Shown here in pieces: positions 15,452 to 31,957 of a stretch of 64,000 nucleotides of DNA. Origin of the DNA: a virus (taxonomy: Duplodnaviria; Caudoviricetes); IMG/VR virus record IMGVR_UViG_3300042268_000564. One strand, written 5' to 3'. Within the stretch, counting starts at the first letter, position 1. Every line of letters begins with the position of its first letter. The notes under the pieces are model-generated. The model saw nothing but the letters and a program-made list of their open reading frames with translations, did not search any database and was not told the DNA's origin. Made by a program: the position numbers and the translations under genes.

Positions 15452-16021
15452 ATGCAATTGACAAAAGAGGAATTAATTAAGGTTGGGAAGCCCGGTGATA
15501 TTTTAATAATGACGTCGATTGGCTTTGACCCGATAGGCATAACAATCCGTTGGTGGAACGGCAGCGACTGGTCACACACATCTTTGTATAAAGGTGATGG
15601 AAAAATCACAGAAGCTATTTATACAGGGGTTCATTCTGCGGACTGGGACGAGGTTCCATACGGGACAGATTATAAGGTAGCTATTTTGCGTCCATTAGAT
15701 GCAACTTATGAACAAAAGTTAAAGGCAATTCAATTTGCAGATAGTAAGGTCGGGATGAAATACGATTACCTTATGATATTGGCAATGGCACCACTTATTC
15801 TTTTGACCCGGATGGGGTTTTCGTTAAGAGGTATAAGGAATATGTTGGATGTTAAAGGGGCTTATATTTGCAGCGAATTGAATTTGGATTCTTATTTCGA
15901 GAGCAGCGGAATTCGCTTGGTTGACCCTAAGATTAATAGGTCGCAAATTACACCAGATGATTTCATAAGGCATGGAATCAATTTGAAACTTATTGGTATT
16001 TACGACCCAAGAGAAGAATAA
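15452..16021 (+). CDS. Permuted papain-like NlpC/P60 enzyme (YiiX/YaeF family)
   Basis: 'KPGDILI...WSHTSLY...EA' His first, 'YDY', then 'YICSEL' Cys: the circularly permuted catalytic order. Confidence 0.85.
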   Translation: MQLTKEELIKVGKPGDILIMTSIGFDPIGITIRWWNGSDWSHTSLYKGDGKITEAIYTGVHSADWDEVPYGTDYKVAILRPLDATYEQKLKAIQFADSKVGMKYDYLMILAMAPLILLTRMGFSLRGIRNMLDVKGAYICSELNLDSYFESSGIRLVDPKINRSQITPDDFIRHGINLKLIGIYDPREE

Positions 16022-16023
16022 GC

Positions 16024-17223
16024 ATGAGCGATAAAACTTTATTGAAAGATTTCAAGATGCTCTTAATAGAAGAGCATTTTAATGACCTTATCGAAGACCT
16101 TTTGTGGAGATTGCGCCAGATTGAAAGAAAGAGTATTGATGACATAACAAAGATTCTTTCAGGTGCGGGTGTTTCTGTGTCTTATGAAGAGGTGTCTGAT
16201 TGGTTGAACTATCTTGATGCAGATATTTTGATTCCACAGGAATTGGTTAAACCAGACCCTAATAAAAAAGCTCCGCCGCCAAAGAAAAAAGGCAATGTGA
16301 ATAATGGGGTTTATGACCCTAATTCTTCGTCACCTATTTGTGGTGATGATTGTCCATCTGCTGCGATGTGTAAATTTTATGCGCATTATTACGGGAAACG
16401 TTGCGTGGTTGATACACAGGCAAAGAAAACATTTTTACAGCCATTAAAGAATTACATTGGTAAAACTTATGGCAGAGATGAAGACCTTAAACAAGTGTTT
16501 TTTAATTTTGCAGAGCAGGTTGCAACTATCAATCAGTTAATGCAGCGTAAAATTCGTCACATGAATACACAAGGGATTACTGTGATTGAGAGAAAAACAG
16601 ACCCTAGCACTGGTAAGCTTGTTGAGAACGAGGTGCCCAATCCTTTAAACTCTGCAATTCTTTCTGACTCAAAGCAGATAATGTCAATGCTTAAAGAAAT
16701 GGGCATGACACCTAAATCCCTCATCAATGAAGACAGTGGCGAAAATGACCCTGCATCTCTGTCTAAGGCTATGGAAATGGAAGAAAGACGTAGGCTTGAG
16801 CAAGAGCATCTTACAGAAGTCAAAAAAGAAAGATATAAGCAGCGACCTGAGATTTCGAGCAAGGAACAGTTACTTGCTCTTATCGAAGAAAAGAAAGATT
16901 TTAATCAGGCGTTGCAACAAGTTTTGCAAGGTGAAGACGTTGTAGAGGTTGACCCGCCAACGTCTGCCCCCATGTCGTCCATTCCAAGGGATGAGCAAGA
17001 GCTTCAGAGTTTGTTGGATAATAATGAAAAGGCTGACGAAAAACAGCCTTCTGTGGGTGAGAAGAAGGATGTTGATTCTGGTAATATAGTTGACGTTGCA
17101 AAGAAGATATTAGAGAAAAAAGGTAATAAAGTATTTGATGATAAGCGCAACCAACATGATGTGGAAATTCCACCTGATGTGCAAAGCATTATTGATAAAA
17201 TCGGTAAATCGAAGGGAGACTAA
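16024..17223 (+). CDS. terS: Probable terminase small subunit (P27-like core) with a Cys4 cluster and acidic tail
   Basis: 'NPLNSAI...QIMSMLKEMGMTPKS' matches the P27-type TerS NP...(F/M)G(L/M)TPxS motif; Cx3Cx5Cx10C upstream. Confidence 0.6.
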   Translation: MSDKTLLKDFKMLLIEEHFNDLIEDLLWRLRQIERKSIDDITKILSGAGVSVSYEEVSDWLNYLDADILIPQELVKPDPNKKAPPPKKKGNVNNGVYDPNSSSPICGDDCPSAAMCKFYAHYYGKRCVVDTQAKKTFLQPLKNYIGKTYGRDEDLKQVFFNFAEQVATINQLMQRKIRHMNTQGITVIERKTDPSTGKLVENEVPNPLNSAILSDSKQIMSMLKEMGMTPKSLINEDSGENDPASLSKAMEMEERRRLEQEHLTEVKKERYKQRPEISSKEQLLALIEEKKDFNQALQQVLQGEDVVEVDPPTSAPMSSIPRDEQELQSLLDNNEKADEKQPSVGEKKDVDSGNIVDVAKKILEKKGNKVFDDKRNQHDVEIPPDVQSIIDKIGKSKGD

Positions 17224-17225
17224 CA

Positions 17226-17636
17226 ATGTCTGGATATTGGATTAATTCAAAAGGGAAGAAATTTATTGGTGACAGTGGTATTGTGCCAGCGGCTGATGCT
17301 GAGAATCCAAATGTGGTAAGCTATGAAGAATGGAACAAGCTTGCAATAGAGATTGTAGCGAGTGGCTCGCCATCTGAAAGTCTTAATGACTCTCCTCAAG
17401 TGGTTCCGTTTACAGCTACAATGACATCGCCAGAAGGTTTGCAGGAATGGACATATGATATGGCCGCATCTGTTGCTGGTATTGATGGCGTGGAAGTCCT
17501 GAATGTTGTAAAAGGTGAAGCTGGAATCTCTGCCGACCTTCAGTTCCCTGTAGATATTATAGAAGGACAAGTAGTTACACTCACCTGTATGTCAGGTGGC
17601 AGAGTGGCAACGCTTGAAATCGCTGTCGAAGCGTAA
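17226..17636 (+). CDS. Hypothetical protein
   Basis: 136-aa ORF with GGGAG SD. Confidence 0.5.
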   Translation: MSGYWINSKGKKFIGDSGIVPAADAENPNVVSYEEWNKLAIEIVASGSPSESLNDSPQVVPFTATMTSPEGLQEWTYDMAASVAGIDGVEVLNVVKGEAGISADLQFPVDIIEGQVVTLTCMSGGRVATLEIAVEA

Positions 17637-17652
17637 TTAAGGTAGGAAATTC

Positions 17653-18081
17653 ATGCCAAGAATAATGCGATTTACCCACGAATATTACGAGAATCGTATT
17701 ATTTGGGGGTTTGACATTAAAGTTGTTGATGATGGAACAGGTAAAAAGCAACTAAGTATTTCTCCCGGCGGCGGGGTTGTTAATAAAGAAATGGTAGAAA
17801 CAGTTGCTGAGAAGGTGTTGCCAGTATCAGACTTTATATTGGATGGGAACAAAAAAGCCCGTACAGACATTGTTGTGTTAGACAGTACGGGAGAAATATA
17901 CGTAATGAAGGGTGTCCCCGGCAGTGGTGTCGCACCTACATCGCCAGAGATAGCACTACAGCTTGCGCATGTGTCAATAAAGGCAGGGTGGAATGGTTTC
18001 GTTGGTAGTGGTGCTCATGATGAAGTAATATGCATGAGAAGTAATCATGTAATTGATACAAGATTTGAGCCTCTGACATAA
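17653..18081 (+). CDS. Hypothetical, probably virion protein
   Basis: 'RTDIVVLD...G.PG...P..P...LQLAHV' resembles phage tail/baseplate attachment domains; SD present. Confidence 0.45.
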   Translation: MPRIMRFTHEYYENRIIWGFDIKVVDDGTGKKQLSISPGGGVVNKEMVETVAEKVLPVSDFILDGNKKARTDIVVLDSTGEIYVMKGVPGSGVAPTSPEIALQLAHVSIKAGWNGFVGSGAHDEVICMRSNHVIDTRFEPLT

Positions 18082-18093
18082 ATTAATGGCTTG

Positions 18094-18130
18094 AAAAGGG
18101 CAGGAATAATTTTCCTGCCCTTTTTTATTT
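18094..18130 (+). terminator. Rho-independent terminator
   Basis: AAAAGGGCAGGAA / TTCCTGCCCTTTT stem followed by a T-tract. Confidence 0.85.
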
Positions 18131-18149
18131 TGTGGCTATTATAGTTTAT

Positions 18150-19280
18150 ATGCCAAAGAAACAAAAGACATTACGAGATGAATTTGCCGAATTGCATCTT
18201 AGTTCTCGTAAATTTGATGATAAGGTTTGCGAAATTACGATGGATGGATGTGGAGCTTTTTGCACGCCTGAATTTTGCGAGGCAAAAAAAGCAGGTGTGT
18301 GTCGAGGATGCACGCATTGTGATTTTTATAATAATTGTCCAGAGGGTGGATGCTCAACTTGTTCTGTTAGGTGCGGAAATAGAAAAGATATTGATGTGTG
18401 GATAAAAGATGTTGGCGGGTTTTCTATTGATTCAGTTAAGTGTGAGAATGTTTTTAATGGCGAGCTTCCTGTTTTTATTCCACAGATAAAAGATTCTTGT
18501 TTTGGTGTAGAGCATGGGGCATATCTGATTTCTTTTACGAGGTTTTTAAGGATTCTTGATGGTGATGTTAAGTGGCTTTATAGGAAGAAAAAGACGATAA
18601 GAGAAGCTTATAAGATTCCAGATAAAACAAAGTTGATTTTGCATTTTTTCGCAAAAGATGACTTGCTTGAAGTTATATGGCGGTTTCAAGACAAGGATTG
18701 GGGTGGCGGGAAGAATATCTGGCAGGTTTTTGCAGAGTTTGGGTTCGATGCTGTGATACCAGTTAATTATTCGTGTTTCGGCAACCAGCCTCGGATGGAA
18801 CATGTTTTGAATGTTAAGCGGAGTATTTTGAGTGCTGAGTCGTTGTCGAAAGTCGGCATTCCTGTGATTATGGATTTGATGTGGCATTCTGATGTGGATT
18901 TTGACAGACTGCTTGCGTGGGGGCTTTCTCGGAATGTGCAGTGGTACTCTATGAATTTTCAAACGCTGCGTAAAGGTAATTGGGCTTTGCCGTTAATAAT
19001 TGAGTTGTTAGAGAAGGTGTTTATGAGCAATCCAAACGCTAAAGTGATTGCAAATGGCATTTCAGACGAGAAACGAATAAAGGCAATATGGTCTAAATTT
19101 GGCGATAAAGTTGTTGTGTCTAATTTCAGTGCTTTTGTCAAGTCTGCGCAAACAGGACTTGTTTATGACGAGAAATGTAAGAAGTGGGTAAAAACAGGAC
19201 AAGACAAGGTTGAGTGCTGGAAAAAGACTGTTGATATGTATACACGTTGGGGTAGCAAATATGGGCAAAAAAAAGATTGA
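18150..19280 (+). CDS. Cys-rich N-terminal domain plus DUF4417-like domain (paralog 1)
   Basis: 11-Cys N-terminus; 'HFFAKDDLLE..W...FDAVIPVNYS...PRMEHVLN..RS...GIPVI' resembles DUF4417; start ATG 18150 or GTG 18132. Confidence 0.6.
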   Translation: MPKKQKTLRDEFAELHLSSRKFDDKVCEITMDGCGAFCTPEFCEAKKAGVCRGCTHCDFYNNCPEGGCSTCSVRCGNRKDIDVWIKDVGGFSIDSVKCENVFNGELPVFIPQIKDSCFGVEHGAYLISFTRFLRILDGDVKWLYRKKKTIREAYKIPDKTKLILHFFAKDDLLEVIWRFQDKDWGGGKNIWQVFAEFGFDAVIPVNYSCFGNQPRMEHVLNVKRSILSAESLSKVGIPVIMDLMWHSDVDFDRLLAWGLSRNVQWYSMNFQTLRKGNWALPLIIELLEKVFMSNPNAKVIANGISDEKRIKAIWSKFGDKVVVSNFSAFVKSAQTGLVYDEKCKKWVKTGQDKVECWKKTVDMYTRWGSKYGQKKD

Positions 19281-20508
19281 TGGCATTGGCATCACAGTAA
19301 AAGGTGGGAATAATTCACTTCAGCTAATCGGCGCCAACAAAACAAAAGGGATAGACGCAGAGAATCGTAACTTTCAAACCACGATAGAAACAGATTGTGG
19401 GTTGGCTTGTCAGGAATGTTCGCAGTATAAGAATGGTCTTTGTTATGGTTGTTATAACGACTGTCGGCAGGGTGTTCGTAGTTGCGTTTCTCAAGATTGC
19501 ACACAGCCAGTTACTTTTGTCCATGACGATGCAGATGCTACCACAGAGCATGGGCTTTGCACTTTAAGATGTTGTAAACGTACTGATATTTCAGAATGGT
19601 TGAATGATGTCTCTGATGGTCGTGGCGATGACCTATCTATTAAGCATATTCGATGGGAACCATCGAGTTTCCCGAAAATGGGACGATTTCTCCCGTCTGT
19701 GAATGGACATATGGAGAATGTTTACGTGCCATATGTAACACTGCCAGTCAATTATCTTTATAGTGAAAAAACCCAAAGAATGCGTGGCGGCGATAAGTCT
19801 GTTCACGAAATGTATGATTTGCATCCTGATACTGAGGTAATCGTAACGGGATATTGCAAGGATAATGTTCTGGAAAGCTTCTGGACTAATAGAGAAAGAG
19901 AATATTTACTTCATAAGATAAAGGCAAAAGGGGTAAAGACTCTGCTTGGCTTTAACTATTCTGTTTACCATAAAGACCCAAGAATGGAACATCTTGTTAA
20001 TATGCGCAGATGTTTTCAGATAATGGACGAAGCGCAGAAGATAGGATTTAAAACAATCCCTGATATTTGTTGGCACAATTCAGCGGATATGAATCAGTTT
20101 ATTGAGTGGATAAACAAGAACAAGGTGAGCGTCGTGAGCACTAGTATGCAGTGTTGTAGAGAGAACGCTTATATTGCTAAGTATGTTTACGACCTTGAAT
20201 ATATTGCGAGTAAGTGTCCTGATGTTAAGAGATGGATTATTAACGGTCCATCTACACCAAGCAGGATAAGAATGTTTGCTGAGTTGTTCCCGAAAATGGT
20301 TCTTATGTCGAGCCGAGCGGGACAGTTGGCGAAATATAACATGATTTGGGATTTCAAGTGTAATGAATATGTCAAATGTGTAAAACCAGACGGTTCTCTT
20401 TTAAGCAGGGCGGAGGCATTTCAAATAAATTGTCAGTTTTTTGAAGATGTGGTTGCAGGTGTCGGACTGGAAAGGTTCGGTGAAGGTTATTTTGGTGACG
20501 ACAAATGA
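19261..20508 (+). CDS. Cys-rich plus DUF4417-like protein (paralog 2)
   Basis: CGLACQEC..C.GC..; 'NYSVY..PRMEHLVNMRR', 'IPDICW', 'WIINGPS'. Confidence 0.6.
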   Translation: MGKKKIDGIGITVKGGNNSLQLIGANKTKGIDAENRNFQTTIETDCGLACQECSQYKNGLCYGCYNDCRQGVRSCVSQDCTQPVTFVHDDADATTEHGLCTLRCCKRTDISEWLNDVSDGRGDDLSIKHIRWEPSSFPKMGRFLPSVNGHMENVYVPYVTLPVNYLYSEKTQRMRGGDKSVHEMYDLHPDTEVIVTGYCKDNVLESFWTNREREYLLHKIKAKGVKTLLGFNYSVYHKDPRMEHLVNMRRCFQIMDEAQKIGFKTIPDICWHNSADMNQFIEWINKNKVSVVSTSMQCCRENAYIAKYVYDLEYIASKCPDVKRWIINGPSTPSRIRMFAELFPKMVLMSSRAGQLAKYNMIWDFKCNEYVKCVKPDGSLLSRAEAFQINCQFFEDVVAGVGLERFGEGYFGDDK

Positions 20509-21761
20509 GTAGGCACAACAAGATAGAGCTTCGGATAAAAAAAGGTAAGGCAAACACAAAGCTTAAAATGGGTGGCGTTAATGCTATCGAGCCTATGGAT
20601 GTTAACAATCGTTTTGTTCAGTCATCTATTGAGGGAAGCTGCGGACAATTTTGTAATGAGTGTGACCAATTTGCTCAGAAACTTTGCGAAGGTTGTTATG
20701 TGGGTTGTCATTCAGAGATTAGGCATTGCATGACAACTGAATGTGATGTTGAGACATCGTCAATAGTTAAAGATAAAACAGGGAATGATACAGAATTAAA
20801 AGGCCCATGTTTAATTCGTTGCTGTAAACGCAATAATTTGAATGAATGGATTGATGACGTGTCTGACAATACAGGCACGTTATCGATACAGGGGATAAGG
20901 TGGGAGCCTTTTCCTGTAGTAGGCTTGCCAGCTTTTATCCCATCTATGAAAGGCCCTGTTGGTGTAGGTGGCATTTATTATCCGATAGTATCTATTTCAT
21001 TGTCAGATATCTACAGGGTAAAAACGGATATGATAGCCACACCCGGCAAAACGATTCAAGAGATGTTTGGTCTGCATCCTGACACTAAGGTAATTTTGAA
21101 CGCTTATTGTGCCGACCCGATTATAGAAAGGTTTTGGACTACTTATCGGGAAAAAGGTCATCTGCAAACTATCCGTGCTAAAGGCATTGAATATGCTATG
21201 GGTTTTAACTATTCGGTATATTATGGGCATCCTCGAATGGAACATCTTATTAATATAAGACGTAACATGGGAATGGTAGCAGAAATGCAGCGAGCAGGGC
21301 TGAAGGTAATACCAGACTTGTGCTGGTTTAATGACGTTGACCTAGACCAATACATTCAATGGATAAATTATAATAAAGTAAGTGTTCTTGGCGTGAGTCT
21401 TCAGTTGTCCAGAGATGAGGCTGTCATGGCTCGGAATCTTATTGATTTAAAGAGGCTGCAAGATAGTTGTCCTGATGTAAAGAAATGGATTATTAACGGT
21501 CCATCCAAGCCATATCGCATCAAAATGCTTATGGATGATTATAGGGATTTAATTTTTATGAACAAATATGCACATCAACTGGCATCTTACAGATTGGTTT
21601 GGGATTTTGAAAGTGCAACATTTGTAAAGCAGATTAATGAGAACGGTGAGGTTATATCACGAAAAGATGCTTTGAAAAAGAATTGTGACTTTTTTACAGA
21701 GTTTGTTCAAGGTAAAAATCACCATTTGTTCCATTCGGAATATTTTGGGAAACAGGAGTAA
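20505..21761 (+). CDS. Cys-rich plus DUF4417-like protein (paralog 3)
   Basis: Close paralog of 19261-20508; ATGA overlap. Confidence 0.6.
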   Translation: MSRHNKIELRIKKGKANTKLKMGGVNAIEPMDVNNRFVQSSIEGSCGQFCNECDQFAQKLCEGCYVGCHSEIRHCMTTECDVETSSIVKDKTGNDTELKGPCLIRCCKRNNLNEWIDDVSDNTGTLSIQGIRWEPFPVVGLPAFIPSMKGPVGVGGIYYPIVSISLSDIYRVKTDMIATPGKTIQEMFGLHPDTKVILNAYCADPIIERFWTTYREKGHLQTIRAKGIEYAMGFNYSVYYGHPRMEHLINIRRNMGMVAEMQRAGLKVIPDLCWFNDVDLDQYIQWINYNKVSVLGVSLQLSRDEAVMARNLIDLKRLQDSCPDVKKWIINGPSKPYRIKMLMDDYRDLIFMNKYAHQLASYRLVWDFESATFVKQINENGEVISRKDALKKNCDFFTEFVQGKNHHLFHSEYFGKQE

Positions 21762-21765
21762 AAAA

Positions 21766-22791
21766 ATGATAAGTGAAAAAAGACGTGTGGCAATAGAATA
21801 CGGTTTTATTGGTATTGGTGGTGCTGGCGGTAAATTGGTAGAAGCTTTCCGTTTTGTTGGTGGTTATAAGTCTCTTGCGATAAACATCTCATCGCAGGAC
21901 TTGGCAAAATTGAAGATGGATGACAATGATGACAAAATTCATATGGATTTAGGACTCGATGGTGCAGGAAAAGAGATGGAGGTCGGCGCAGCCGCAGTAA
22001 AAAGATATGCTGGTGAATTACATGATGCAATAAGTAGGAAGTTCAAGAATACAGATTATCTTATCTGTTGTGTTGGTGGTGGCGGCGGCACTGGCTCAGG
22101 TGGTGCCAAAGAGTTGATTAATATCTGCAAGCAGTATGCGCAGAATGTTGGTGTAATGCTTACATTGCCAAAGGACACTGAGGGCGAAAAAGTAAGACAT
22201 AATACTGCTGAACTTTTGAATGATTTGTATGTGATGGCAGAGGCAAAAGAAATCTCTCCTTTAATTTTGGTGGATAATCAGAAAATTTCAGATATTAATG
22301 CTGATTGGAATATTTTGAGTTTTTGGAAAAAAGCGAATGCTGAAGTAGCAATGTTGTTTCATCAGATTAATCTGTTGTGTGCTGAGGATAGTGAAGTTCA
22401 CCCATTTGACCCTGCTGATTATAGAACAATCATGAAGTCTGGCAGATGTTTAGTGTTCGGTAGTCTTGATATTCCATCAGAGAATCTTTCTGAGAGCAGC
22501 ATATCTATATATATGAGAGAGAATCTAACATCTGGGCTATTGGCCAGAGACTTTGAAGAGTCTTACATGACATCAAAAGTAGCAGGGGCAATTTTAGTAG
22601 GGAACGAAGAAATCCTTGGTGAAATTCCAATGGAATATCTTGAAAGAGCCTTTGGTGTTTTAAATAGAATGATAGGCGACGGAACCGTTCATAGAGGAAT
22701 TTATACAAATGATGCTATTGCTTTGCGGGTTTATACCTTGATTGGCAATTTGGTTATACCCGAAACAAGAATAAAGGCACTCGCTCGATAG
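21766..22791 (+). CDS. Tubulin/FtsZ-family GTPase (PhuZ/TubZ-like)
   Basis: N-terminal GIGGAGGK, 'GAGK' T3 region, signature GGGTGSG, 'LVDN', T7-like 'FDPADY'; AGGAG SD before ATG 21766. Confidence 0.92.
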   Translation: MISEKRRVAIEYGFIGIGGAGGKLVEAFRFVGGYKSLAINISSQDLAKLKMDDNDDKIHMDLGLDGAGKEMEVGAAAVKRYAGELHDAISRKFKNTDYLICCVGGGGGTGSGGAKELINICKQYAQNVGVMLTLPKDTEGEKVRHNTAELLNDLYVMAEAKEISPLILVDNQKISDINADWNILSFWKKANAEVAMLFHQINLLCAEDSEVHPFDPADYRTIMKSGRCLVFGSLDIPSENLSESSISIYMRENLTSGLLARDFEESYMTSKVAGAILVGNEEILGEIPMEYLERAFGVLNRMIGDGTVHRGIYTNDAIALRVYTLIGNLVIPETRIKALAR

Positions 22792-22860
22792 TTGTTTTTT
22801 TGAAATGGGCTTATAAAGTATTTCTTAGAAAACCGAAGCTGAAATTATGGGGGAAAACAC

Positions 22861-24462
22861 ATGAGGGACAGTAAGAGGGAGCAGCACGCACCCTATTTAT
22901 TGCTGGACTGGCAAGATATACAGCAGATGTTGGCGGGTCATCATCCGTTGATATTGTTCCGTATGGCGATGGCAGAAGAAGCTACTTTTAATCCACCGTC
23001 AAGAGTTGAGTCGGGAGATTATCTGACAAATGCAGAGTTCCTTTCTACTCGATTGAAAGAGAATGATTTACATCTGGCAGATATAGAAAGCATGGGAATA
23101 GACTTATTCCGTGCCACTGATGGCTTAACAGATGTTTCGGATTCTGCTTTAAAAAGAATATTAACATTGGCGGAGCAAAAGTCTAAAAAAGGTGTTTTAC
23201 GCAAAAAAGGTCTTGTTGATTCATCTGAGTTAAAACCTATTCAGCGTAAGGTTCCTATTCAAAAAGGTGCAAATTATGGCGACCCTGAGAATAAAGCATT
23301 TCCATTAGATACAGCAGAGCGTGTAAAAGCAGCTCACGCTCACCTTCACAAAGCTTGGCAGAATAAAGGTGAGACTGGAATTACTGCGTCTTATGGACGA
23401 GATAAGTTTTTGAAGGTTCACAAGCGAATAATTACAAGAATGCGTAGGCTTGGTTTGCAGCATACGCCAGTAGATACCTTAGATTCTGCAACACGCAGGA
23501 TGTTAAAGGCAGAGAAGGCGGCTAAAGTTGCATTAAAAGATAGTGTTGCGCCAGAGATTGCGAGTCAAGATGATGTGAATAGACTGCAAAACATTCTGGA
23601 AGTGTTATTCACAGACCATATTTCTTTTTTGAAAAATTATATTATTGCTAAAGATGAAGGCAATGATTCTGTTGCTGAGTCGATGAAGACACTGCTTGAT
23701 AATAATAATGAAGCAATTTTGGGATTTGTTAATGAGCATCTTTTAACAGAAGAGTCTGATGTTTATTTGTTAAAGCAGTTCAGCAATATTTGGGATGATT
23801 ATGTCAATGCAGCTCTTTCGATGGCATTAAGCGGTGATACTGGCAGTGAAAACATGAAGAAAGATTCAGAGCGGAATCTTTTTCTTGCTAAAGATGGGAT
23901 TGTTGCCTTTGTGGTTTCTTTGACCTCTGATGTGGCAGAACAAGCAAAGCTTAATGCTGCATTTACAGATTGGGCTACATATTTGCAGCAGTATATTGAG
24001 ATGCGTGATAGTGATGATTTTGCAGCATCTTTTCAAAGCTTGAAAGATTGGCAAAAGTCAAAATCAGTGGTTGCAGGTTTGATTGCCAAGTGGATAGTTA
24101 ATAGAGATGCCTTTGCAGAAGCATCGGTTGATGGTAATGAAATTGCCGAAACTGACGAGCCAGAAGTTGGTGATATCCCAAGAGGTGCCCCAGCAGGTGG
24201 AACTCAGCCGGGAGCAACGCAGCCAGAGGTAACAAACCCGCCAGCACCAATGGCGAATATGAATCCAAATCAATTACAGGATGCAGCAGCAAGTCCTGCC
24301 GCACCTGTGCCAGCAGCCAATACGTCACCCACAACTGCATCTGTTTATCCACCTCAAGGTGTTGAACAGAATAGAGAGCAAGGTAGTGGACATAAGCCTT
24401 ATAGAGATGATTGCACGCCAGACCGCAGAAGCGGGAAATGCTATAAAAAACATGGAAAATAA
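22861..24462 (+). CDS. Multi-domain protein with a DUF6582-like/His-rich module, helical bundle and Pro-rich tail; possible head-internal protein
   Basis: 'YGDPENKAFPLDTAERVKAAHAHL' resembles DUF6582; motif shared with the next gene and the prohead protease. Confidence 0.5.
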   Translation: MRDSKREQHAPYLLLDWQDIQQMLAGHHPLILFRMAMAEEATFNPPSRVESGDYLTNAEFLSTRLKENDLHLADIESMGIDLFRATDGLTDVSDSALKRILTLAEQKSKKGVLRKKGLVDSSELKPIQRKVPIQKGANYGDPENKAFPLDTAERVKAAHAHLHKAWQNKGETGITASYGRDKFLKVHKRIITRMRRLGLQHTPVDTLDSATRRMLKAEKAAKVALKDSVAPEIASQDDVNRLQNILEVLFTDHISFLKNYIIAKDEGNDSVAESMKTLLDNNNEAILGFVNEHLLTEESDVYLLKQFSNIWDDYVNAALSMALSGDTGSENMKKDSERNLFLAKDGIVAFVVSLTSDVAEQAKLNAAFTDWATYLQQYIEMRDSDDFAASFQSLKDWQKSKSVVAGLIAKWIVNRDAFAEASVDGNEIAETDEPEVGDIPRGAPAGGTQPGATQPEVTNPPAPMANMNPNQLQDAAASPAAPVPAANTSPTTASVYPPQGVEQNREQGSGHKPYRDDCTPDRRSGKCYKKHGK

Positions 24463-25336
24463 CAAAAAGGGTGTCCCAGTAACACCCACAAGTGAAGATG
24501 GGATTGCGCCTTTAAACGGCGTCCCTACGCCTATGAACCCATACGCAAAAAAGGATGAAGGTGGCAAAGAAATGTCGGAAAAAGAAAAGCAAGAGAATGA
24601 AAATGTAATAGAAATGTCTTATAGCGAGACTATTGATTTTTTGCGAGGGGAGCACCCCCTTGCTGTGGCGATTGATGAAATGCGCAGAGAAGGATTGATT
24701 TGTGTATCACGAGAAGAATTTGAAAGCCGACTTTCATTGGTTATAAAGCGACAGGAGGGCAAGGTTGATGTGAGCGATGTCCCTAATGCTGATGCTAGAG
24801 CAAAGGCAAGAGAAAATGAATCGCCGGAGTCTGAAAAAGAATATGCAGATAGAGAAAATCTAGCGTTTCCTGTTGATTCCGAAAAGCGAGCAAGCACTGC
24901 ACATGCTTACATTCACAAGTATTGGAATATGCCCTCAAAGAAGGGGATTACGGCAACTTATGGACGTGATGATTTTATCCGTGTTCATAATAGTATTGTT
25001 GCCGCTATGAAAAAATTTGGTGTTACTCATAATTATTTGGATTCTTTGGATGAAGCGTCTGGATACAAAAAGGGTGAGAATGGTGAAGCTGTGTCGCTGC
25101 AAAGCTGTAATAAATCTGGTCAAAAGTTATCAGGTTCGTCAGAAAAGAGTAGCACTAAGCTTTCATTTGATTTCGCAGAAAAGCAACGAGTAGTGTCTTG
25201 GTCAAGGAACAGGATGCGTGAAGCAGGTAGTATAGAGAAAATAGAAGGGCTAGTTGCGACTGTAAGGTGGGAGTGTGGCTTGGTAACAACTGAGTTACTT
25301 GCCAGCTTAATGCCAAGCATGTCCGCAAAAAAATAA
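24452..25336 (+). CDS. Paralog carrying the DUF6582-like/His-rich module (start 24452 or 24572)
   Basis: 'YADRENLAFPVDSEKRASTAHAYIHKYW...GITATYGRD' closely matches the upstream gene's 'GITASYGRD'. Confidence 0.5.
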   Translation: MENNKKGVPVTPTSEDGIAPLNGVPTPMNPYAKKDEGGKEMSEKEKQENENVIEMSYSETIDFLRGEHPLAVAIDEMRREGLICVSREEFESRLSLVIKRQEGKVDVSDVPNADARAKARENESPESEKEYADRENLAFPVDSEKRASTAHAYIHKYWNMPSKKGITATYGRDDFIRVHNSIVAAMKKFGVTHNYLDSLDEASGYKKGENGEAVSLQSCNKSGQKLSGSSEKSSTKLSFDFAEKQRVVSWSRNRMREAGSIEKIEGLVATVRWECGLVTTELLASLMPSMSAKK

Positions 25337-25338
25337 AT

Positions 25339-25399
25339 ATCAACCTTATTCTGAAGTTGGCGTAAAAGTTCTGCCACGAGGTTGATTTTTTCTTTTACG
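25339..25399 (+). terminator. Terminator-like hairpin with an alternative pairing, upstream of nrdJ
   Basis: ATCAACCT/AGGTTGAT stem followed by a T-tract. Confidence 0.45.
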
Positions 25400-25447
25400 G
25401 ACGGCGTTGTTTTAACAAGATGATTAATAAGTGAACGAGGTACGTCA

Positions 25448-28400
25448 ATGTCAATGCGATTGGTTAAGAAAAGAGATGGCAAAATGTCTGAATTTAATAA
25501 GGAAAAAATTGTTAATGCAATATATAGGGCAGCAATGGATTCATATGGCTGCAATAAGGAAATAGACCATGTAGAAAAGACTCAATATGATGTTGATTGG
25601 CAGGAGCGTTGTAGTGTCGTTGCGGATGCTGTGGTCGAAACTCTTAAGCAAAAACAGGAAATTGAATGTACTGTTGAGAATATACAAGACCTTATAGAGA
25701 TAGAATTGATGAAGGTTGATGGACGGGTGGCCAAGTCTTATATTCTTTACAGGAATGAGCGTAGTGAGGCAAGAAAAGTTGACGAGAAGAAAGCCCATCA
25801 GGTTCAATTTTTAACCCCTGAGCTTTTGAGTAAATATAAACATTTGCCTGACCCATTTCCTACAGAACTTGGCAAGATTGTTTATTATAGGACTTATTCA
25901 AGACCTGTAGAGACGCAGAATCGCAGGGAACGTTGGTGGGAAACATGTGCAAGAGTGGTTGAATACAGTTCTTATTTGGAGCGTGAAGCGATTGCAAGAA
26001 AACGAGCGATTACCGACCATGATATTAAGAGATTGCAAGACGAAGCTGTTGAGCTTTTTGATGCAATATTCAATTTGAAGGTATTTCCGTCAGGAAGAAC
26101 ATTGTGGACGGGCAACACGTTAAGCTCGAAAATGTATCCTCTCTCTAATTTTAACTGTTCTCTTGTGACAATAGATTGTTACAAAAAATTCAGCGAAATT
26201 TTCAGTGTTTTAATGTTGGGGACAGGTGTTGGTCTATCCGTAGAAAAGAAATATATTTCGAAGCTTCCTAAAATTAACACGCAGATTGAGCTGATACAGA
26301 AGGATGTAAAAAGAGTCCCTAAACACGAGAGAAAAGAATTTAGTGAATTGCGGCAAAAGTCCGACAATATGTTAGAGATAGTAGTTGGAGATTCAAAGTT
26401 CGGTTGGGCGATGGCATTAGAAATGTTTTTTCAAATTGTAACCCAGTCGCAATATTCAGACATTAAATTCATTGTCATGAATTACGACAATGTAAGACCT
26501 GCTGGCGAAAGACTTAAAACCTTTGGCGGATATGCTTCTGGTGAGCAGGCAATAGCGCAGATGTTTTATAAGATTGGGCAATTACTTGCAGGCAGAAAAT
26601 CAGAAGGACACTGGTATAAAATCAAGCCTATTGACGCTTTGGATATTGCTACTATAATCGCTGAAAATGTTGTTTCTGGTGGCGTTAGGCGTTCGTCTGA
26701 GATTGTTTTTTGCGACCCTGATGATAAAGAAGTTATTGAAGCAAAAAGTAAACTTTATTTCAAAGATGAGAATGATACGTGGCAGGTTAATGGTGATTTA
26801 ATCCATCGTACATTATCGAATAACACGATTCTTTATAAAGAACGTCCGACAAAAGAACAATTGTCTGCACAGTTTCAGTCAATGAGATACAGCGGTGAAC
26901 CCGGTTTTGGGAATATGGCAGAAATGCTTAGACGTAGACCTGATGTTCAGGGTGGCAATCCGTGTCAGCCTAAAGGTGAATATATTTTGACAAAAGATGG
27001 TTTCCGCAAGATAGAAGAAATTGTGGACACTGTTACTCTTAATGGAAAGAATTATTTGTCTACGCCCATGTTCTCTACTGGACGCAAAGAAGTTTTTGAG
27101 GTTACGTTGGCAAACAATGCAAAAATTCGGATGACAGGCAATCACAAGGTGACTGTGGGTTATGATATATCAACGAACACCTTTAAAGATGTTGAGTTAA
27201 AGGATTTAAAGCCGGGTGACAGTGTATGTGTTGACTATTCACCGATATTTGATGCTCACATAGGAAACAAAGCAGAATATGAAAAAGGGATTGTGGCAGG
27301 CTGGTTGCTGGCTGACGGGTGCTTTTCGAAGCATCATCATGACGATGATTATTCTGTGGAATTTTGCGTCGGTGAAAAAGAGTTTGAATACGCTTCGCAA
27401 TTGGAGGGTTTGGTTGTTAAACATTATGATGATAATTTCCAGCTTAAACCACATGGACAAACGAAAGCGGCTTTGCGAGGTCGAGTTTTTAAACAGTCTG
27501 TTGTGACCCAAATGAAGGCAGATTTAGGCATCCAAGGTTGGAATAAGTTTGATAATGAACTTTATAAAAAAGGGAAAGATTTTAAGTTGGGAGTTTTGCG
27601 AGCAATATTTACTTGTGATGGAAGTAGTTCGTCTAATCGAATAGCGTCACTTTACTCTATTGATGAGAAATTTCTAGCTGGTATTCAACGAATATTGATG
27701 GAATTTGGGATATATTCTGACATTTTGATTAACGGGAAGGCGAAAATTTATATTGCAAAAGACGATAAGGTAAGAAATAACAAAACGTGTTGGGCTTTAA
27801 ATGTTCACGATGTTGAATTTGAAAAAATTGGCTTTCTTACAGAATATAAAAATAAAAGAATGCTTGTCAACATTAATAGGAAGCGAAGTTCCAGATTAGT
27901 TAATAGAGCTAAAAGTATGAATAAAGTTTTGGAGCATAAGCGAGAATTGGTAATTACCAGCATCGAGTCGGTTGGAATGCATGACGTTTATGACATTACT
28001 GTTGATGAGGTACATCATTATAACACGAATGGGTTAGTTGTCCATAACTGTTTCGAAATACTTCTCAGGGATAGAGGGGTTTGCAATTTAACCGAAGTTA
28101 ATATGATGGCGTTTGTCCGACCTGATGGCTCTATTGATAAAGACGGCTTGTTCAAGGCTCAAAAATTATCTGCAAAAATTGGTTATAGAATGGCGACAAC
28201 AGAGCTGGAAATGCATGAATGGAACCTTGTAAATCAGGAGGACATGCTTACGGGCTGTTCTATTACAGGTGTAATGGACTTTGTTAATGCAAGTGGAATT
28301 TCTCACGAGGAATTGGCTGCATTATTGGAAGAGATGAGACAAGTGGCGAAAGCAGAAGTTAATCGGCTTGCGAAGTTTTTGGGTACTAATGAATCAAAGT

Positions 28401-28984
28401 TGGTAACAACAATTAAGCCAAGCGGAACAATTTCTCAACTGCCTACAGTGAGTAGCGGTGTTCATTTTTCTCATGCGCCATATTATATCCGCAGAGTTAG
28501 AGTGAATTCAAATGACCCAATGGCAAAAGCACTCAAGAAGGCTGGTTTTGTGTGGCATCCTGAGAATAATCAAACGCTTGAGTCTCATACAACTGCTGTA
28601 TTCGAAATTCCAGTAAAAGCTCCTAAAGGTAAAACAAAATATGATGTGAGTGCTGTTGAGCAATTGGAACTTTATAAATTGGTTATGAAACATTATGTAG
28701 ACCATAATGCAAGTAATACAGTTCATGTAAGAAATGATGAGTGGGAACAAGTGGAAGAGTGGGTTTACAACAATTGGGATGATGTTGTTGGGCTTACTTT
28801 TCTCTCTCTTGATGACAGTTTCTATCAGTTAATGCCTTATGAGGAGATAACCGAAGAGAAATACAATGAACTATCCGCCGCTTTGCCTACATTTAATCCG
28901 ACTATGCTGAAAGAATTTGAAAGCTTTGTAGAGGAATTTGACCTCGGTTCGGATTGCGAGGGAGGAGCTTGTCCTATTCGATAA
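25448..28984 (+). CDS. nrdJ: Class II (B12-dependent) ribonucleoside-triphosphate reductase with N-terminal ATP-cone and an intein
   Basis: ATP-cone (VKKRDG...FNKEKI), 'YYRTYSR', 'PSGRTLW', 'FNC', 'GGVRRSSEI', NP|CFE, 'TTIKPSGT', C-terminal CEGGACPIR. Confidence 0.93.
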   Translation: MSMRLVKKRDGKMSEFNKEKIVNAIYRAAMDSYGCNKEIDHVEKTQYDVDWQERCSVVADAVVETLKQKQEIECTVENIQDLIEIELMKVDGRVAKSYILYRNERSEARKVDEKKAHQVQFLTPELLSKYKHLPDPFPTELGKIVYYRTYSRPVETQNRRERWWETCARVVEYSSYLEREAIARKRAITDHDIKRLQDEAVELFDAIFNLKVFPSGRTLWTGNTLSSKMYPLSNFNCSLVTIDCYKKFSEIFSVLMLGTGVGLSVEKKYISKLPKINTQIELIQKDVKRVPKHERKEFSELRQKSDNMLEIVVGDSKFGWAMALEMFFQIVTQSQYSDIKFIVMNYDNVRPAGERLKTFGGYASGEQAIAQMFYKIGQLLAGRKSEGHWYKIKPIDALDIATIIAENVVSGGVRRSSEIVFCDPDDKEVIEAKSKLYFKDENDTWQVNGDLIHRTLSNNTILYKERPTKEQLSAQFQSMRYSGEPGFGNMAEMLRRRPDVQGGNPCQPKGEYILTKDGFRKIEEIVDTVTLNGKNYLSTPMFSTGRKEVFEVTLANNAKIRMTGNHKVTVGYDISTNTFKDVELKDLKPGDSVCVDYSPIFDAHIGNKAEYEKGIVAGWLLADGCFSKHHHDDDYSVEFCVGEKEFEYASQLEGLVVKHYDDNFQLKPHGQTKAALRGRVFKQSVVTQMKADLGIQGWNKFDNELYKKGKDFKLGVLRAIFTCDGSSSSNRIASLYSIDEKFLAGIQRILMEFGIYSDILINGKAKIYIAKDDKVRNNKTCWALNVHDVEFEKIGFLTEYKNKRMLVNINRKRSSRLVNRAKSMNKVLEHKRELVITSIESVGMHDVYDITVDEVHHYNTNGLVVHNCFEILLRDRGVCNLTEVNMMAFVRPDGSIDKDGLFKAQKLSAKIGYRMATTELEMHEWNLVNQEDMLTGCSITGVMDFVNASGISHEELAALLEEMRQVAKAEVNRLAKFLGTNESKLVTTIKPSGTISQLPTVSSGVHFSHAPYYIRRVRVNSNDPMAKALKKAGFVWHPENNQTLESHTTAVFEIPVKAPKGKTKYDVSAVEQLELYKLVMKHYVDHNASNTVHVRNDEWEQVEEWVYNNWDDVVGLTFLSLDDSFYQLMPYEEITEEKYNELSAALPTFNPTMLKEFESFVEEFDLGSDCEGGACPIR
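26963..28048 (+). mobile_element. Intein (362 aa) with LAGLIDADG homing endonuclease in NrdJ
   Basis: Begins CQPKGEYI, block B 'TGNHKV', LAGLIDADG-like GWLLADG and AIFTCDG, ends 'VYDITV...VVHN' followed by C. Confidence 0.93.
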
Positions 28985-28993
28985 CGGAGTGTT

Positions 28994-31957
28994 ATGTCGT
29001 TAATTGTACCATCGAACAAAGAGTCTGATGAAATATCGGTAATTGAGACTAATAACCTTACTACCGACCAGATTTCCTTAGTTAAATATTTAAGAGAAAA
29101 CCCAGTAGTTGCCGCAAAGGTGCTACTGGGTGTTACTCTTGAATGGTATCAGGCTGAAGCCTTGAATGATGTTTGGCGAAAAAGATTTTCTATTTTTTGT
29201 TGGTCTCGTCAGATTGGGAAAACTTTTACTGAAGCTGTTTTATTTGCTTTGATAGCTGCGCTTTATCCTGAAGAAGATTGCGTGTTTATTGCGCCATCTT
29301 TACGTCAGTCCATGAATCCTTTTAATTATATTCGTGAATTTTATGCGAATCACGCAATGTTTAGAAGTATGGTTCGTGGAAAGATGACAAAAACAAAGTT
29401 AGAGATGAAGAATAATTCTACTGTGACACCGCTTCCGTTGGGAGATGGGTGCCTGTCAGAGGCTCTACTGGCTAGTGACGGCGGGTTCTTTTATCTCGAA
29501 TCCGCTTGTAGTGCAAAAAGAAAAAAACAAAAAGTTGTAACCACTGATAAAATAAGTGGTGAGAACGGTTTTAAAGAAGCTGATTATTTCTTTTACAACG
29601 GGCACGTTCCTATAAAAATAGCTGATACTAAACGTGGCTACCAGCTTAAAGGTTCTCATATCCATCCTATCCGTGCGATTAAGGACGGGGTGTTGCAGTG
29701 GGTGAGGATGCCAGACCTTAACGTAGGTGATAAGGTTGTGATTGACCGTAGAGAAAATTGGTTTCCAAAAACAAATGATATTACCTATGACGAGGCGTAT
29801 TTTGTAGGGGCTATGATTGGAGACGGAAACTATACGGAACAATATTGGCTCGGATTTGCAAATTCACCGAAGGATAGAGAAATTGTAGATTACATTAATG
29901 AGCCTGCGAATAAAATCTTGGGTATGAAATTTAAGCCGATTTCTGATGAATTTCATTTTATTATTCGTTCTAAAGAAAAACGGCTTGAATTCTTCGATTA
30001 TTTTGGGATGCCACAGTATGACCATCGTGACGAGCGTGCTTATGCTAAGAACAAATCTATGCCGTCTAAAATCATGTCTTGCTCGAAAGATGCAATGCGT
30101 GGTTTTTTACAGGGATTGTTTGACACTGATGGGCATGTTTCAGAGAATAAAGCAGGCACGGCGAGAGAGGTAGGCTTTACTAATACATCAGAACGGCTTG
30201 CAAGAGAAGTGCAGTCCGTCTTGTTGAAATTTGGGATTATTTCATCGTTAGAAACAAGAACTCGACGGGGTTGGAACCCTATATTTAATTTGCATATAAC
30301 AGGGCAAGATTTGATTCTGTTTGCCGAACGTATTGGCTTCAGGTTAAAGCGCAAGCAGGAACGATTAGAAAAAATAATTGCAAAAAGTAAGCGTAATTAT
30401 TCTTTAACTGACCAGATTTATCATATTGGCAATAGCTTGCTTGCAGTTGAGAATGAATTTGGCTTGGCAAAGAAGTGTGTAATTGACAAAAGTAAACATA
30501 CTTTATGGGAACGATTAGTTGAAAGAATAAATAAACAACAAGGAATTACATATGAGCAGTTGGCAAGATTCCTTGATGTTTATAAAGATGTTGAACATGA
30601 TGAATTGGTCTTTTTGCGTGATGTTTATGAACGTCATTATTTTTATGATGAAATAGCGTCTATTGAAGATTCAGAGGCTGATACTTACGATGTTCATATT
30701 CCTGATGACCATACATTCTGGTCTAATGGCTTTATTTCGCACAACAGTAAGATTCTTGGAACGCACGCATCGGTTATTGGGATAGATGAATATGCACGTT
30801 TTTCTAAGGAAATAGTTGATACTATCATCATGCCGATGGCGAACCGTAAAAAGAACCCATTTAGCCGTGGTAATAGAGTTAGCATCATTTCTACGCCATT
30901 ATCTAAAGCAAACCATTATTATCGAACATTTTGTGATTACCAGAAAGAACAAACGCTTAACCCTAACGGCGATTATCATGTTTCCACATATAATTTTCTT
31001 GATTCAGACAATGTCGACCTTGACGTGTTTGCTAACCAGATTAAATCCATGCCGTTTGAGCGATTTGCCAGAGAGAATCTTGCAGTATTTACCTCTGAAG
31101 TTGGTGGCTTTTTCTCTGAGGAGCTTTTAAGACAGTGCGAAGATGAGCTTTCTATTGAATTGGCAGGGGAAGATGGGTTTGAATATGTAATGGGTATCGA
31201 CCCGCCAAGTGTTAATAACCAACTAGGCTTAACCTTGTTTAAGCTTACGGAAAATAATCAAAAATTAGAGCTTGTATATTGCTGTGGGATTCCTGCTGGA
31301 TACATTACCACGCCTCAACTTGTTGGGTTGATAGTTCGTTTTATTAAGCGTTTTAATATTAAGCGCATTCATATAGATGAAGGTGGCGGCGGTCGTCAGG
31401 TTGCAGGTTATTTGTTTGCGCCCGGTGTTATTGTTGATGAATATGAATGTCCTGTGAAGGTAATGTTGCCCCCTCGTGGCGAAGAGATTATGCAATGGAG
31501 CGGGGCAAGAAATGCTGATGACCCACTTACATTGAATAACAAAAGATTAGAACCTGTAGTTATAAAGCTTACGTCTTTTAACCCTCATAATAAATCTGCG
31601 ATGTATTTCAATGTCCGCAATGCTATGCAGGAAGGTGCGATTATTATGCCTGCCTATCGTCCGGGTGACAATAAATTTGTAGAGACGAATACATTGCAAG
31701 GTGAACTCGAAGGGCTTAAAGGCGAGCAAACAGCAGCGGGTATTTTGATGTTGCGTAAGCCAGAGAATCTTTATGATGACCGAGCAGATTCTTATGTGTT
31801 GGCGTATGACGCATTTTTGGGATACATGCAAAAAGGAAATTTCCCGACTACGGTTAAGAGCGTTAAGCATCAAGATGACCTTGTGTCGAGTAATTGGGAT
31901 AGCCGCAGAGACATTCCTTTCACGGATAGAGGGGATTGGGGCAATCGGGATTGGTAA
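28994..31957 (+). CDS. terL: Terminase large subunit with an intein
   Basis: 'LEWYQ', Walker A SRQIGKT, 'IAPSLRQS', Walker B IGIDEY, 'ISTP', RNase H-like 'MGIDP' and 'DDRADS'. Confidence 0.93.
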   Translation: MSLIVPSNKESDEISVIETNNLTTDQISLVKYLRENPVVAAKVLLGVTLEWYQAEALNDVWRKRFSIFCWSRQIGKTFTEAVLFALIAALYPEEDCVFIAPSLRQSMNPFNYIREFYANHAMFRSMVRGKMTKTKLEMKNNSTVTPLPLGDGCLSEALLASDGGFFYLESACSAKRKKQKVVTTDKISGENGFKEADYFFYNGHVPIKIADTKRGYQLKGSHIHPIRAIKDGVLQWVRMPDLNVGDKVVIDRRENWFPKTNDITYDEAYFVGAMIGDGNYTEQYWLGFANSPKDREIVDYINEPANKILGMKFKPISDEFHFIIRSKEKRLEFFDYFGMPQYDHRDERAYAKNKSMPSKIMSCSKDAMRGFLQGLFDTDGHVSENKAGTAREVGFTNTSERLAREVQSVLLKFGIISSLETRTRRGWNPIFNLHITGQDLILFAERIGFRLKRKQERLEKIIAKSKRNYSLTDQIYHIGNSLLAVENEFGLAKKCVIDKSKHTLWERLVERINKQQGITYEQLARFLDVYKDVEHDELVFLRDVYERHYFYDEIASIEDSEADTYDVHIPDDHTFWSNGFISHNSKILGTHASVIGIDEYARFSKEIVDTIIMPMANRKKNPFSRGNRVSIISTPLSKANHYYRTFCDYQKEQTLNPNGDYHVSTYNFLDSDNVDLDVFANQIKSMPFERFARENLAVFTSEVGGFFSEELLRQCEDELSIELAGEDGFEYVMGIDPPSVNNQLGLTLFKLTENNQKLELVYCCGIPAGYITTPQLVGLIVRFIKRFNIKRIHIDEGGGGRQVAGYLFAPGVIVDEYECPVKVMLPPRGEEIMQWSGARNADDPLTLNNKRLEPVVIKLTSFNPHNKSAMYFNVRNAMQEGAIIMPAYRPGDNKFVETNTLQGELEGLKGEQTAAGILMLRKPENLYDDRADSYVLAYDAFLGYMQKGNFPTTVKSVKHQDDLVSSNWDSRRDIPFTDRGDWGNRDW
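29450..30745 (+). mobile_element. Intein (432 aa) with LAGLIDADG homing endonuclease in TerL
   Basis: Begins CLSEALLA, block B 'GSHIHPI', GAMIGDG and GLFDTDG motifs, ends 'TYDVHIP..HTFWSNGFISHN' followed by S. Confidence 0.93.

Follow-up and report, generated by a model that had tools for sequence, protein, structure and literature searches.

A conserved gene block from tubulin to the large terminase in a small clade of uncultured jumbo phages

Do the genes that lie between a putative small terminase gene and the large terminase gene of an uncultured jumbo phage work as one late system, or are they neighbours with separate histories? The locus that raises this question occupies 16-32 kb of a 64,000-nucleotide stretch of phage DNA (hereafter the window, i.e., positions 159,068-223,067 of the 393,839-bp uncultured phage record IMGVR_UViG_3300042268_000564), and by open reading frame (ORF) coordinates all of its genes lie on the + strand. 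A preliminary description had read it as a single late module in which DNA modification or marking, cytoskeletal positioning and deoxynucleotide (dNTP) supply are coupled to packaging. The gene identities and the order that it gave were confirmed by family searches, apart from a weak TerS call: a TerS-like gene, three Cys-rich DUF4417-like paralogs (D1, D2 and D3), a tubulin, two proteins sharing a His module (H1 and H2), a class II ribonucleotide reductase (RNR) and TerL (Table 1). The tight spacing that it described likewise matches the ORF coordinates (overlaps of 20 nt between D1 and D2, 4 nt (ATGA) between D2 and D3 and 11 nt between H1 and H2; gaps of 4 nt from D3 to tubulin and 9 nt from the RNR to TerL), and the terminator that it placed at 18.1 kb is a strong intrinsic one.

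Compared with its relatives, the stretch is a conserved synteny block in a small clade of uncultured jumbo phages, in which tubulin-H1-H2-RNR-TerL form the stable core and a pair of DUF4417 genes (types A and B, see below) is an old but movable neighbour. The comparison set comprised the window and seven other tubulin-bearing lineages that were fetched (L004, L005-7, L017, L019, L012, L013 and L018). Tubulin is accompanied by an H1 ortholog in the window and in 7/7 of the other lineages, and H2-RNR-TerL is kept in all six that reach that far (L004, L005-7, L017, L019, L012 and L013); the L018 contig, whose tubulin is 65% identical to the window's, stops inside H1. The full order from the TerS-like gene to TerL is found beyond the window in L005-L007 and L017, with three DUF4417 genes each, and in L004, with two. 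L019 (tubulin 64% identical to the window's) carries an A+B pair directly 5' of tubulin-H1-H2 and has no TerS-like gene upstream of the block, and both L012 and L013 (tubulin 65%) read tubulin-H1-H2-NrdD-NrdG-TerL. Overall, the DUF4417 pair stands directly 5' of tubulin in 5/8 lineages, which represent the class II branch as well as the NrdD branch.

The order also breaks in informative places. No DUF4417 genes lie beside the tubulin of L012, L013 and L018, where unrelated small genes occupy that place, and three further loci (L008, L009 and L010) hold an A+B pair that shares 61-65% identity with the L019 pair and is flanked, over the 4 to 10 kb that were fetched to each side, by neither tubulin nor RNR nor TerL. 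L008 shares its sample of origin with L013 and L018, and the pair may thus sit elsewhere in L013/L018-type genomes. The co-conservation on which a single module would depend is thus split: tubulin with H1 (8/8) and H2-RNR-TerL (6/6) hold together, whereas the DUF4417 pair, the TerS-like gene and the type of RNR vary. A distant tubulin (32-33% identity, L014) is found among RNA-polymerase genes, nowhere near a terminase. The relatives that make up the clade come from metagenome assemblies. Nothing in GenBank phages matched the region at the DNA level, and protein searches there with a DUF4417 paralog, with H1 and with two members of the wider DUF4417 family were negative; only tubulin and TerL had a match, each at 26% identity, the former in Bacillus phage G (among nucleotide-metabolism genes) and the latter in Clostridium phage Amboise. 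When IMG/VR was scanned with back-translated patterns, neither a DUF4417 paralog nor the alignment of the paralogs nor the His module led to a confirmed relative.

Three kinds of RNR that are unrelated to one another fill the slot between H2 and TerL, namely the class II enzyme of the window and L006, a class II enzyme 25-32% identical to it in L017 and L004, and, in L012, L013 and L019, NrdD followed by a 144-148-aa gene (148 aa in L019) taken as the NrdG activase. The flanking genes are orthologous throughout (tubulin 64-81%, TerL 47-82% identity), and on these comparisons the slot reads as an in-place non-orthologous replacement that took place at least twice, and as a clean example of its kind. 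The RNR of the window matches RNR_Alpha (3.6e-28), RNR-II_ins_dom (2.3e-7), Ribonuc_red_lgC (1.6e-9) and ATP-cone (1.7e-15) in Pfam, and also contains an intein. LAGLIDADG inteins are frequent in the RNR and TerL genes and vary among lineages (neither gene in L006, TerL only in L017, both in L012 and in the window), and one may speculate that homing inteins favour the exchange of neighbouring DNA. For the suggested coupling of dNTP supply to packaging we found no support beyond position.

A hairpin with a U run precedes the type A gene in 4/4 lineages that have a gap upstream of it (window, L006, L017 and L004), and its sequence differs among them at an unchanged position. Between this terminator and the first DUF4417 gene, a TATAAT-like box was seen by eye in four lineages (GCTATTATAGT, CGTATAATAGT, GTATTATATAAT, GTATTATAATAG), and is a candidate promoter for late or middle phage genes. 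Since positionally conserved terminators lie before type A and after H2, the stretch appears to split into three likely transcription units: the TerS-like gene with two small genes of 136 and 142 aa; the DUF4417 genes with tubulin, H1 and H2; and the RNR, TerL, the portal and the genes beyond.

Building on the observed gene content, paralogy, synteny with its breaks, terminators and fold resemblance, we favour with moderate confidence the explanation that the block consists of three separately transcribed and separately inherited units, which include a DUF4417 base-exchange complex and a tubulin with H1 and H2 as its partners. Unit 1 (16.0-18.1 kb) would comprise a possible small terminase and two small genes and be ended by the conserved terminator, Unit 2 (18.15-25.4 kb) would be an operon of the DUF4417 genes, tubulin, H1 and H2, and Unit 3 would open with the RNR, replaced at least twice, and continue with TerL, the portal and the head genes. 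Within Unit 2, we infer a heteromer of the DUF4417 proteins, an A-B(-B') complex that would break and remake a glycosidic bond on nucleic acid; its most likely reaction would be the exchange of a base in phage DNA for a host-made base, and the N-terminal 10-Cys domain of its subunits would hold metal or Fe-S clusters. H1 and H2 always accompany tubulin, and would make contact with it as adaptors or cargo of a tail-less filament protein.

The first gene of Unit 1 deserves its cautious name. Its product matches Terminase_4 at E 3e-4 and phrog_361 ("terminase small subunit") at E 3.9e-4, and the Terminase_4 scores of three orthologs (21.5 bits in the window, with 19.5 and 16.6 in the other two, L006 and L004) all fall under the cut-off of 24.7; NCBIfam and PDB sequence searches gave no backing. 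Read by eye, the protein combines a helical N-terminal region with a short Cys motif and a core resembling TerS of the P27 type, and its gene lies 11.8 kb upstream of TerL. Orthologs beyond the window occur only in L004, L005-7 and L017 (four lineages with the window), i.e., the gene is confined to one branch of the clade. We regard it as a possible small terminase.

Of the DUF4417 proteins of Unit 2, D2 exceeds the gathering cut-off of Pfam DUF4417 (PF14386; 31.7 vs. 28.9 bits) and the two other paralogs score 25.9 and 24.9 bits, with E-values from 1e-7 to 2e-5 for the three. By BLAST they fall into two orthogroups, type A (D1, ~365 aa) and type B (D2 and D3, 400-430 aa), with 25-30% identity between A and B and 42% between D2 and D3. 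Type A orthologs were recovered from L006, L017, L004, L019, L008 and L009; B is duplicated (B') only in the window, L005-7 and L017; and in L004, L008 and L009 the two genes of the pair abut or overlap. These comparisons mark the DUF4417 genes as an ancient A+B pair, of which B underwent a lineage-specific duplication in the window. In the alignment, all paralogs share a set of invariant polar residues and, N-terminal to the barrel described below, 10 invariant Cys, which cluster ~90 residues ahead of the first barrel strand and start with the spacing C-x3-C-x2-C in type B, the first spacing being variable in type A. A profile search extended the family to 1,293 cluster representatives (E <=0.001), and 22/32 sampled wide relatives match Pfam DUF4417 (best E 4e-14); most of the members sampled carry ~10 Cys at the N-terminus in a spacing that recurs, and some lack them. 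The proteins of the window share the Pfam match and add to it a 10-Cys N-terminal domain and A/B pairing, in contrast to the two wider relatives looked at in context (L020-L023), which are single genes in uninformative neighbourhoods.

The case for base exchange comes from structure prediction. An AlphaFold2 (AF2) model of D3 (418 residues, mean pLDDT 73, with residues 134-418 well modelled) was searched against 48,161 PDB representative chains without a Foldseek pre-filter, and its top five matches were ArcTGT (Z 16.6 over 273 aa, root-mean-square deviation (rmsd) 4.6), QTRT2 (Z 15.3), TGT (Z 14.8), DpdA (Z 13.7) and Cap10 (Z 13.1). These TGT-superfamily matches align 248-273 residues, vs. 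183-247 residues at Z <=12.7 for other TIM barrels, and a separate structural comparison agreed. The BFVD matches of the same model include phage entries for "queuine tRNA-ribosyltransferase". The invariant residues D204, N235, S237, PRMEH243-247, D271, D279, Q300, N331 and D367, kept in both A and B, lie at or just after modelled strand ends; of the four Asp, all of which sit at strand ends, the wide family keeps D204 and D279 nearly without exception, and the clade keeps D271 and D367 without exception. For comparison, the TGT/DpdA active site relies on three invariant Asp (acid/base, base recognition and nucleophile; PMC10164549). Taken together, the DUF4417 barrel is predicted from this model to have a TGT/DpdA-like fold, for which no support was found at the sequence level.

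Known systems of this superfamily offer two points of comparison. QTRT1/QTRT2, a precedent for a heterodimeric TGT met in the structure search (PDB 6fv5 and 7ovs), also consists of two diverged paralogs of one barrel, and QTRT2 is the second-best match of D3. It differs from the DUF4417 pair in that A and B both keep the same invariant barrel-face residues, so that neither type looks like a dead subunit. DpdA/DpdB (PDB 7ui4; phage 9g type) is phage-encoded as well, and DpdA requires the ParB-like DpdB (PMC10164549); a parallel to this may be seen in DUF4417-ParB-fold fusions of other phages, and a parallel to the DUF4417 paralogs in tandem DpdA paralogs of Microbacterium phage Megan. However, the DUF4417 proteins of the window have no sequence or profile similarity to DpdA, carry their 10 Cys at the N-terminus, come without a QueC or FolE gene, and have no ParB-like gene that we noticed beside the pair. 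Useful comparators for paired TGT-fold phage genes are Megan (L030, 670-3903), where two adjacent DpdA-type genes are followed by a QueC-like gene, and Mycobacterium phage Typha (L029, 202-2050), where a ParB-like protein is encoded two genes before a DpdA-type gene. Of the DNA modification that the preliminary description had proposed, the predicted fold is what stands; genes for deazapurine synthesis were not found in the genome. DUF4417, a large family of unknown function, would gain a concrete predicted TGT/DpdA fold assignment, a 10-Cys domain and an A/B pair architecture.

The tubulin is a clear family member (PF00091, 49.3 bits vs. a cut-off of 33), with an invariant GGGTG.G box and invariant acidic T7 residues D215 and D218. 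Its best PDB sequence match is RepX (E 6.7e-22), then FtsZ and TubZ, with no PhuZ entry; among PHROGs, the PhuZ family matches at E 3.8e-6 vs. 1.5e-14 for an unnamed one. Close homologs, including the 65%-identical P0014, contain a TubZ-like_C domain, and the window's tubulin is tail-less, stopping right after its C-terminal domain. PhuZ, which forms the spindle of nucleus-forming jumbo phages, serves to position the phage DNA and to carry capsids. The window's protein resembles it in being a jumbo-phage tubulin but differs in the weak PHROG match, the lack of PhuZ among PDB sequence matches and the missing acidic C-terminal tail. Closer to it are the tubulins of the TubZRC or TubZ-TubR-TubY loci (Bacillus pXO1 RepX, pBtoxis TubZ and Clostridium phage c-st TubZ), which resemble the window also in that two dedicated small to medium genes follow. 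In those systems TubR docks on the C-terminal tail of TubZ. The tubulin of the window is tail-less, no iteron or centromere repeat arrays were found in 14-33 kb, and neither H1 nor H2 matched a helix-turn-helix family in Pfam or in NCBIfam and PDB sequence searches; the two carry instead a new His module, a Tudor-like barrel and a Cys/His tail. The setting differs as well, being a late operon of a 394-kb phage near TerL rather than a plasmid or prophage partition locus.

A 74-aa His module is common to H1 and H2, and 21 of its positions, including four His, are invariant in the alignment. In H1, this module follows an N-terminal "AGHHPL...NPP" motif and precedes a helical domain, a Pro-rich linker and a conserved, basic, Cys/His-rich C-terminal tail (GHKPYR.DC..D..GKCYK.H). 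H2 has a disordered N-terminus, an N motif as in H1, the His module and a C-terminal Tudor/KOW/SH3-like barrel (structural match at Z ~8, rmsd 1.9 A over 54 residues). With the H2 model, Foldseek and VIA matched the Tudor-like end only and returned nothing for the fold of the His module, and ESM Atlas feature and shape searches gave low scores only. The nearest named family is DUF6582 (PF20223), which the module matches repeatedly and never at its cut-off (17.7-20.2 bits vs. 27.3 in H1 and H2, with weak or faint matches in the L012 and L019 orthologs). Scanned over the 394-kb genome, a hidden Markov model of the module found H1, H2 and, twice, a 1111-aa head protein (full-sequence E 6.6e-8). 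This protein has its modules at ~35693-35866 and 36887-37048, a zinc ribbon and, by eye, a C-terminal helical coiled-coil-like region; it matched no protease or scaffold family in Pfam, PHROGs or NCBIfam, and its position suggests such a role. A predicted complex of tubulin with H1 scored 0.00 in a run without controls, which counts neither way. A tail-less TubZ-like tubulin with two private partners would make a candidate link between cytoskeleton and capsid assembly outside the nucleus-forming phages.

Two further features of these proteins stand apart. The N-terminus of H2 (24452-24600) contains a peptide conserved across orthologs, M-P-D-x-R-V-P-R ... P-L-N-x-G-G, which looks like a docking or processing signal. 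In L004 (L004:12293-13622), H1 is without its central helical domain (317 aa), and H2 is without the His module (119 aa) and keeps the N motif and the Tudor-like barrel; each kind of H1/H2 piece is thus retained at least once in the pair.

Several observations weigh against the explanation by three units. The tubulin-bearing relatives all belong to one clade (tubulin >=63% identical), and for that reason their shared order may be simple descent. The hairpin with a U run after H2 is clear in 3/7 lineages (window, L013 and L019) and not clear in the others, the window's hairpin (25339-25396) has a fold energy that is not exceptional and a z-score that is not significant alone, and phage terminators are often read through. 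As for base exchange, PF01702 (TGT) has no match in the 394-kb genome, the DUF4417 profile none among PDB sequences, and hhalign of DUF4417 against seven phage DpdAs gave P ~0.1; the Z margin over generic TIM barrels is just 1 to 4 units, on a model of pLDDT 73. The Cys cluster is N-terminal vs. the C-terminal zinc site (CxCxxC...H) of TGT, a TGT-type zinc site was not found, and the CX3CX2C-like spacing with which the cluster starts could indicate a different chemistry. Neither QueC nor GTP cyclohydrolase I (FolE) is encoded in the genome, and deazapurine precursors could possibly be supplied by the host.

How these points are weighed depends on what else could explain the block. A tentative competitor holds that H1 and H2 are head-internal or scaffold-accessory proteins, docked into the procapsid by their DUF6582-like His module, and that their place after tubulin is merely inherited order. 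The occurrence of the module twice in the 1111-aa portal-capsid protein, and otherwise just in H1 and H2, speaks for this, sub-threshold DUF6582 matches recur in the orthologs, and the long disordered linker and basic Cys/His tail of H1 are features often seen in internal DNA-binding proteins. On the other hand, the contigs of the 9 clusters of the H2 family, where a length is listed for them, match tubulin-bearing ones, H1 was seen only in those loci, both genes lie ahead of the terminator-like hairpin and hence in the tubulin unit rather than the head-gene unit, and the protease or scaffold identity of the 1111-aa protein is positional only. The original proposal of one late system from the TerS-like gene to TerL, with packaging coupled to DNA marking by the DUF4417 enzymes, tubulin-based positioning and a local supply of dNTPs, has become quite unlikely. 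The order from the DUF4417 pair to TerL is kept in five lineages including L019 of the NrdD branch, which suggests an ancestral arrangement, and an RNR was retained in its slot through >=2 replacements; to this extent, i.e., an order kept within the clade, the proposal is partly supported. It is weakened because the DUF4417 pair is missing by tubulin in L012, L013 and L018 and lies in other surroundings in L008-L010; four lineages have no TerS-like gene upstream of the block, one type of RNR can stand in for another, the units are set apart by conserved terminators, and the distant L014 tubulin is remote from any terminase.

The remaining alternatives concern the nature of the DUF4417 enzymes. 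In the first, their targets would be proteins rather than DNA, and they would handle tagged cargo or effectors bound for the virion in the manner of Cap10. This member of the TGT family, described as binding to the modified N-terminus of a protein (bioRxiv 10.1101/2025.04.06.647259), is among the top five structural matches, and one ORF of the genome starts MGQGGRGGG. We consider this unlikely: a GGRG-type tag occurs on no DUF4417 neighbour, here or in the relatives, the ORF in question is 100 kb distant and without a Pfam family, such a match is expected about once by chance in this genome (a rough estimate), and the genome holds no QueC-like partner. This ORF, the only one in the genome with a GGRG-type start (G000:C1:283058-284341, i.e., L031:4059-5342; 427 aa), is found near an SbcC-like gene, beyond the window at about 124 kb from its start. 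The barrel might instead belong to an unrelated TIM-barrel enzyme, for instance one that is Fe-S dependent or radical-type through its CX3CX2C-like start, with a TGT likeness that is generic. The lack of profile similarity to TGT/DpdA, aldolase-type barrels reaching Z 12.7, and the B-type C-x3-C-x2-C together with weak radical-SAM rows in the viral fold list would fit. Even so, we give this a low probability, as all five top places went to the TGT superfamily over longer alignments than those of other barrels, the Cys cluster precedes the barrel instead of lying inside it, the first Cys spacing varies in type A, and several family members have no cluster. Least probable in our view, and offered as a speculation, is that Unit 2 is a packaging-logistics operon, in which H1 and H2 would hitch procapsids or DNA to the filament, using the His module shared with the head-assembly protein and, for DNA, the Tudor-like barrel and the Cys/His tail, and an Fe-S or Zn DUF4417 A-B(-B') complex, as a new family of nucleic-acid transglycosylases, would mark DNA or join cargo to it shortly before packaging. 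Separate units with a base-exchanging DUF4417 complex and tubulin partners thus remain the explanation that we prefer.

Table 1. Features of the tubulin-terminase block and its surroundings. Positions are those of the window unless a lineage is given.
Feature	Position	Strand	Basis
TerS-like protein, 399 aa	16024..17223	+	sub-threshold Terminase_4, phrog_361
Two small genes, 136 aa and 142 aa	17226..18081	+	close upstream unit; orthologs in L006, L017, L004
Intrinsic terminator, 14-bp stem and T run	18093..18125	+	sequence/hairpin
TATAAT-like box regions	window 18126-18149; L006:4010-4035; L017:6385-6403; L004:8880-8900		by eye
D1, DUF4417-like type A	18150..19280 (ORF opens GTG 18132)	+	DUF4417 E 7.7e-6, 45-63% identical orthologs
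D2, DUF4417-like type B	19261..20508 (ORF from 19210)	+	DUF4417 E 1.4e-7
D3, DUF4417-like type B'	20505..21761	+	DUF4417 match; AF2-modelled protein
TubZ/RepX-like tubulin, 341 aa	21766..22791	+	PF00091 E 9e-13
H1, 533 aa	22861..24462	+	His module 23272-23493; alignments
H2, 294 aa	24452..25336	+	His module 24839-25060; C-terminal Tudor/KOW/SH3-like barrel
Terminator-like hairpin and U run between H2 and RNR	25339..25396	+	hairpin/fold analysis
Class II (B12-type) RNR, ATP-cone and LAGLIDADG intein	25448..28984	+	Pfam matches
RNR slot, class II types	window 25448-28984; L017:13775-15679; L004:13677-16523
RNR slot, NrdD and putative NrdG	L012:12549-16162; L013:13861-16299; L019:13969-17618
TerL with LAGLIDADG intein	28994..31957	+	Terminase_6N, Intein_splicing, LAGLIDADG_3
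Portal candidate, 1115 aa	32000..35347	+	position only
Head-assembly protein, 1111 aa	35432..38767	+	between portal and capsid genes; two His modules, Zn_ribbon_3
Major capsid protein, HK97 fold family	39338..40384	+	PF05065 27.2 bits vs. cut-off 24.2; phrog_10

A few features of the table call for comment. Comparison with orthologs suggests that D1 probably starts at the ATG at 18150 and not at the GTG at 18132. The two small genes of Unit 1 had no family above threshold in Pfam or PHROGs, and an Rfam search of 14-36 kb gave no match. The portal candidate had no direct family match in Pfam, PHROGs, or NCBIfam and PDB sequence searches; the gene in the portal position of L012 has a weak Phage_portal match. 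Just 5' of the TerS-like gene, at 15452-16021, lies a gene for a permuted-papain (C92-like) protein, which belongs to a PHROGs auxiliary-metabolism family (E 6e-16) and is found in the same place in L004, L006 and L017.

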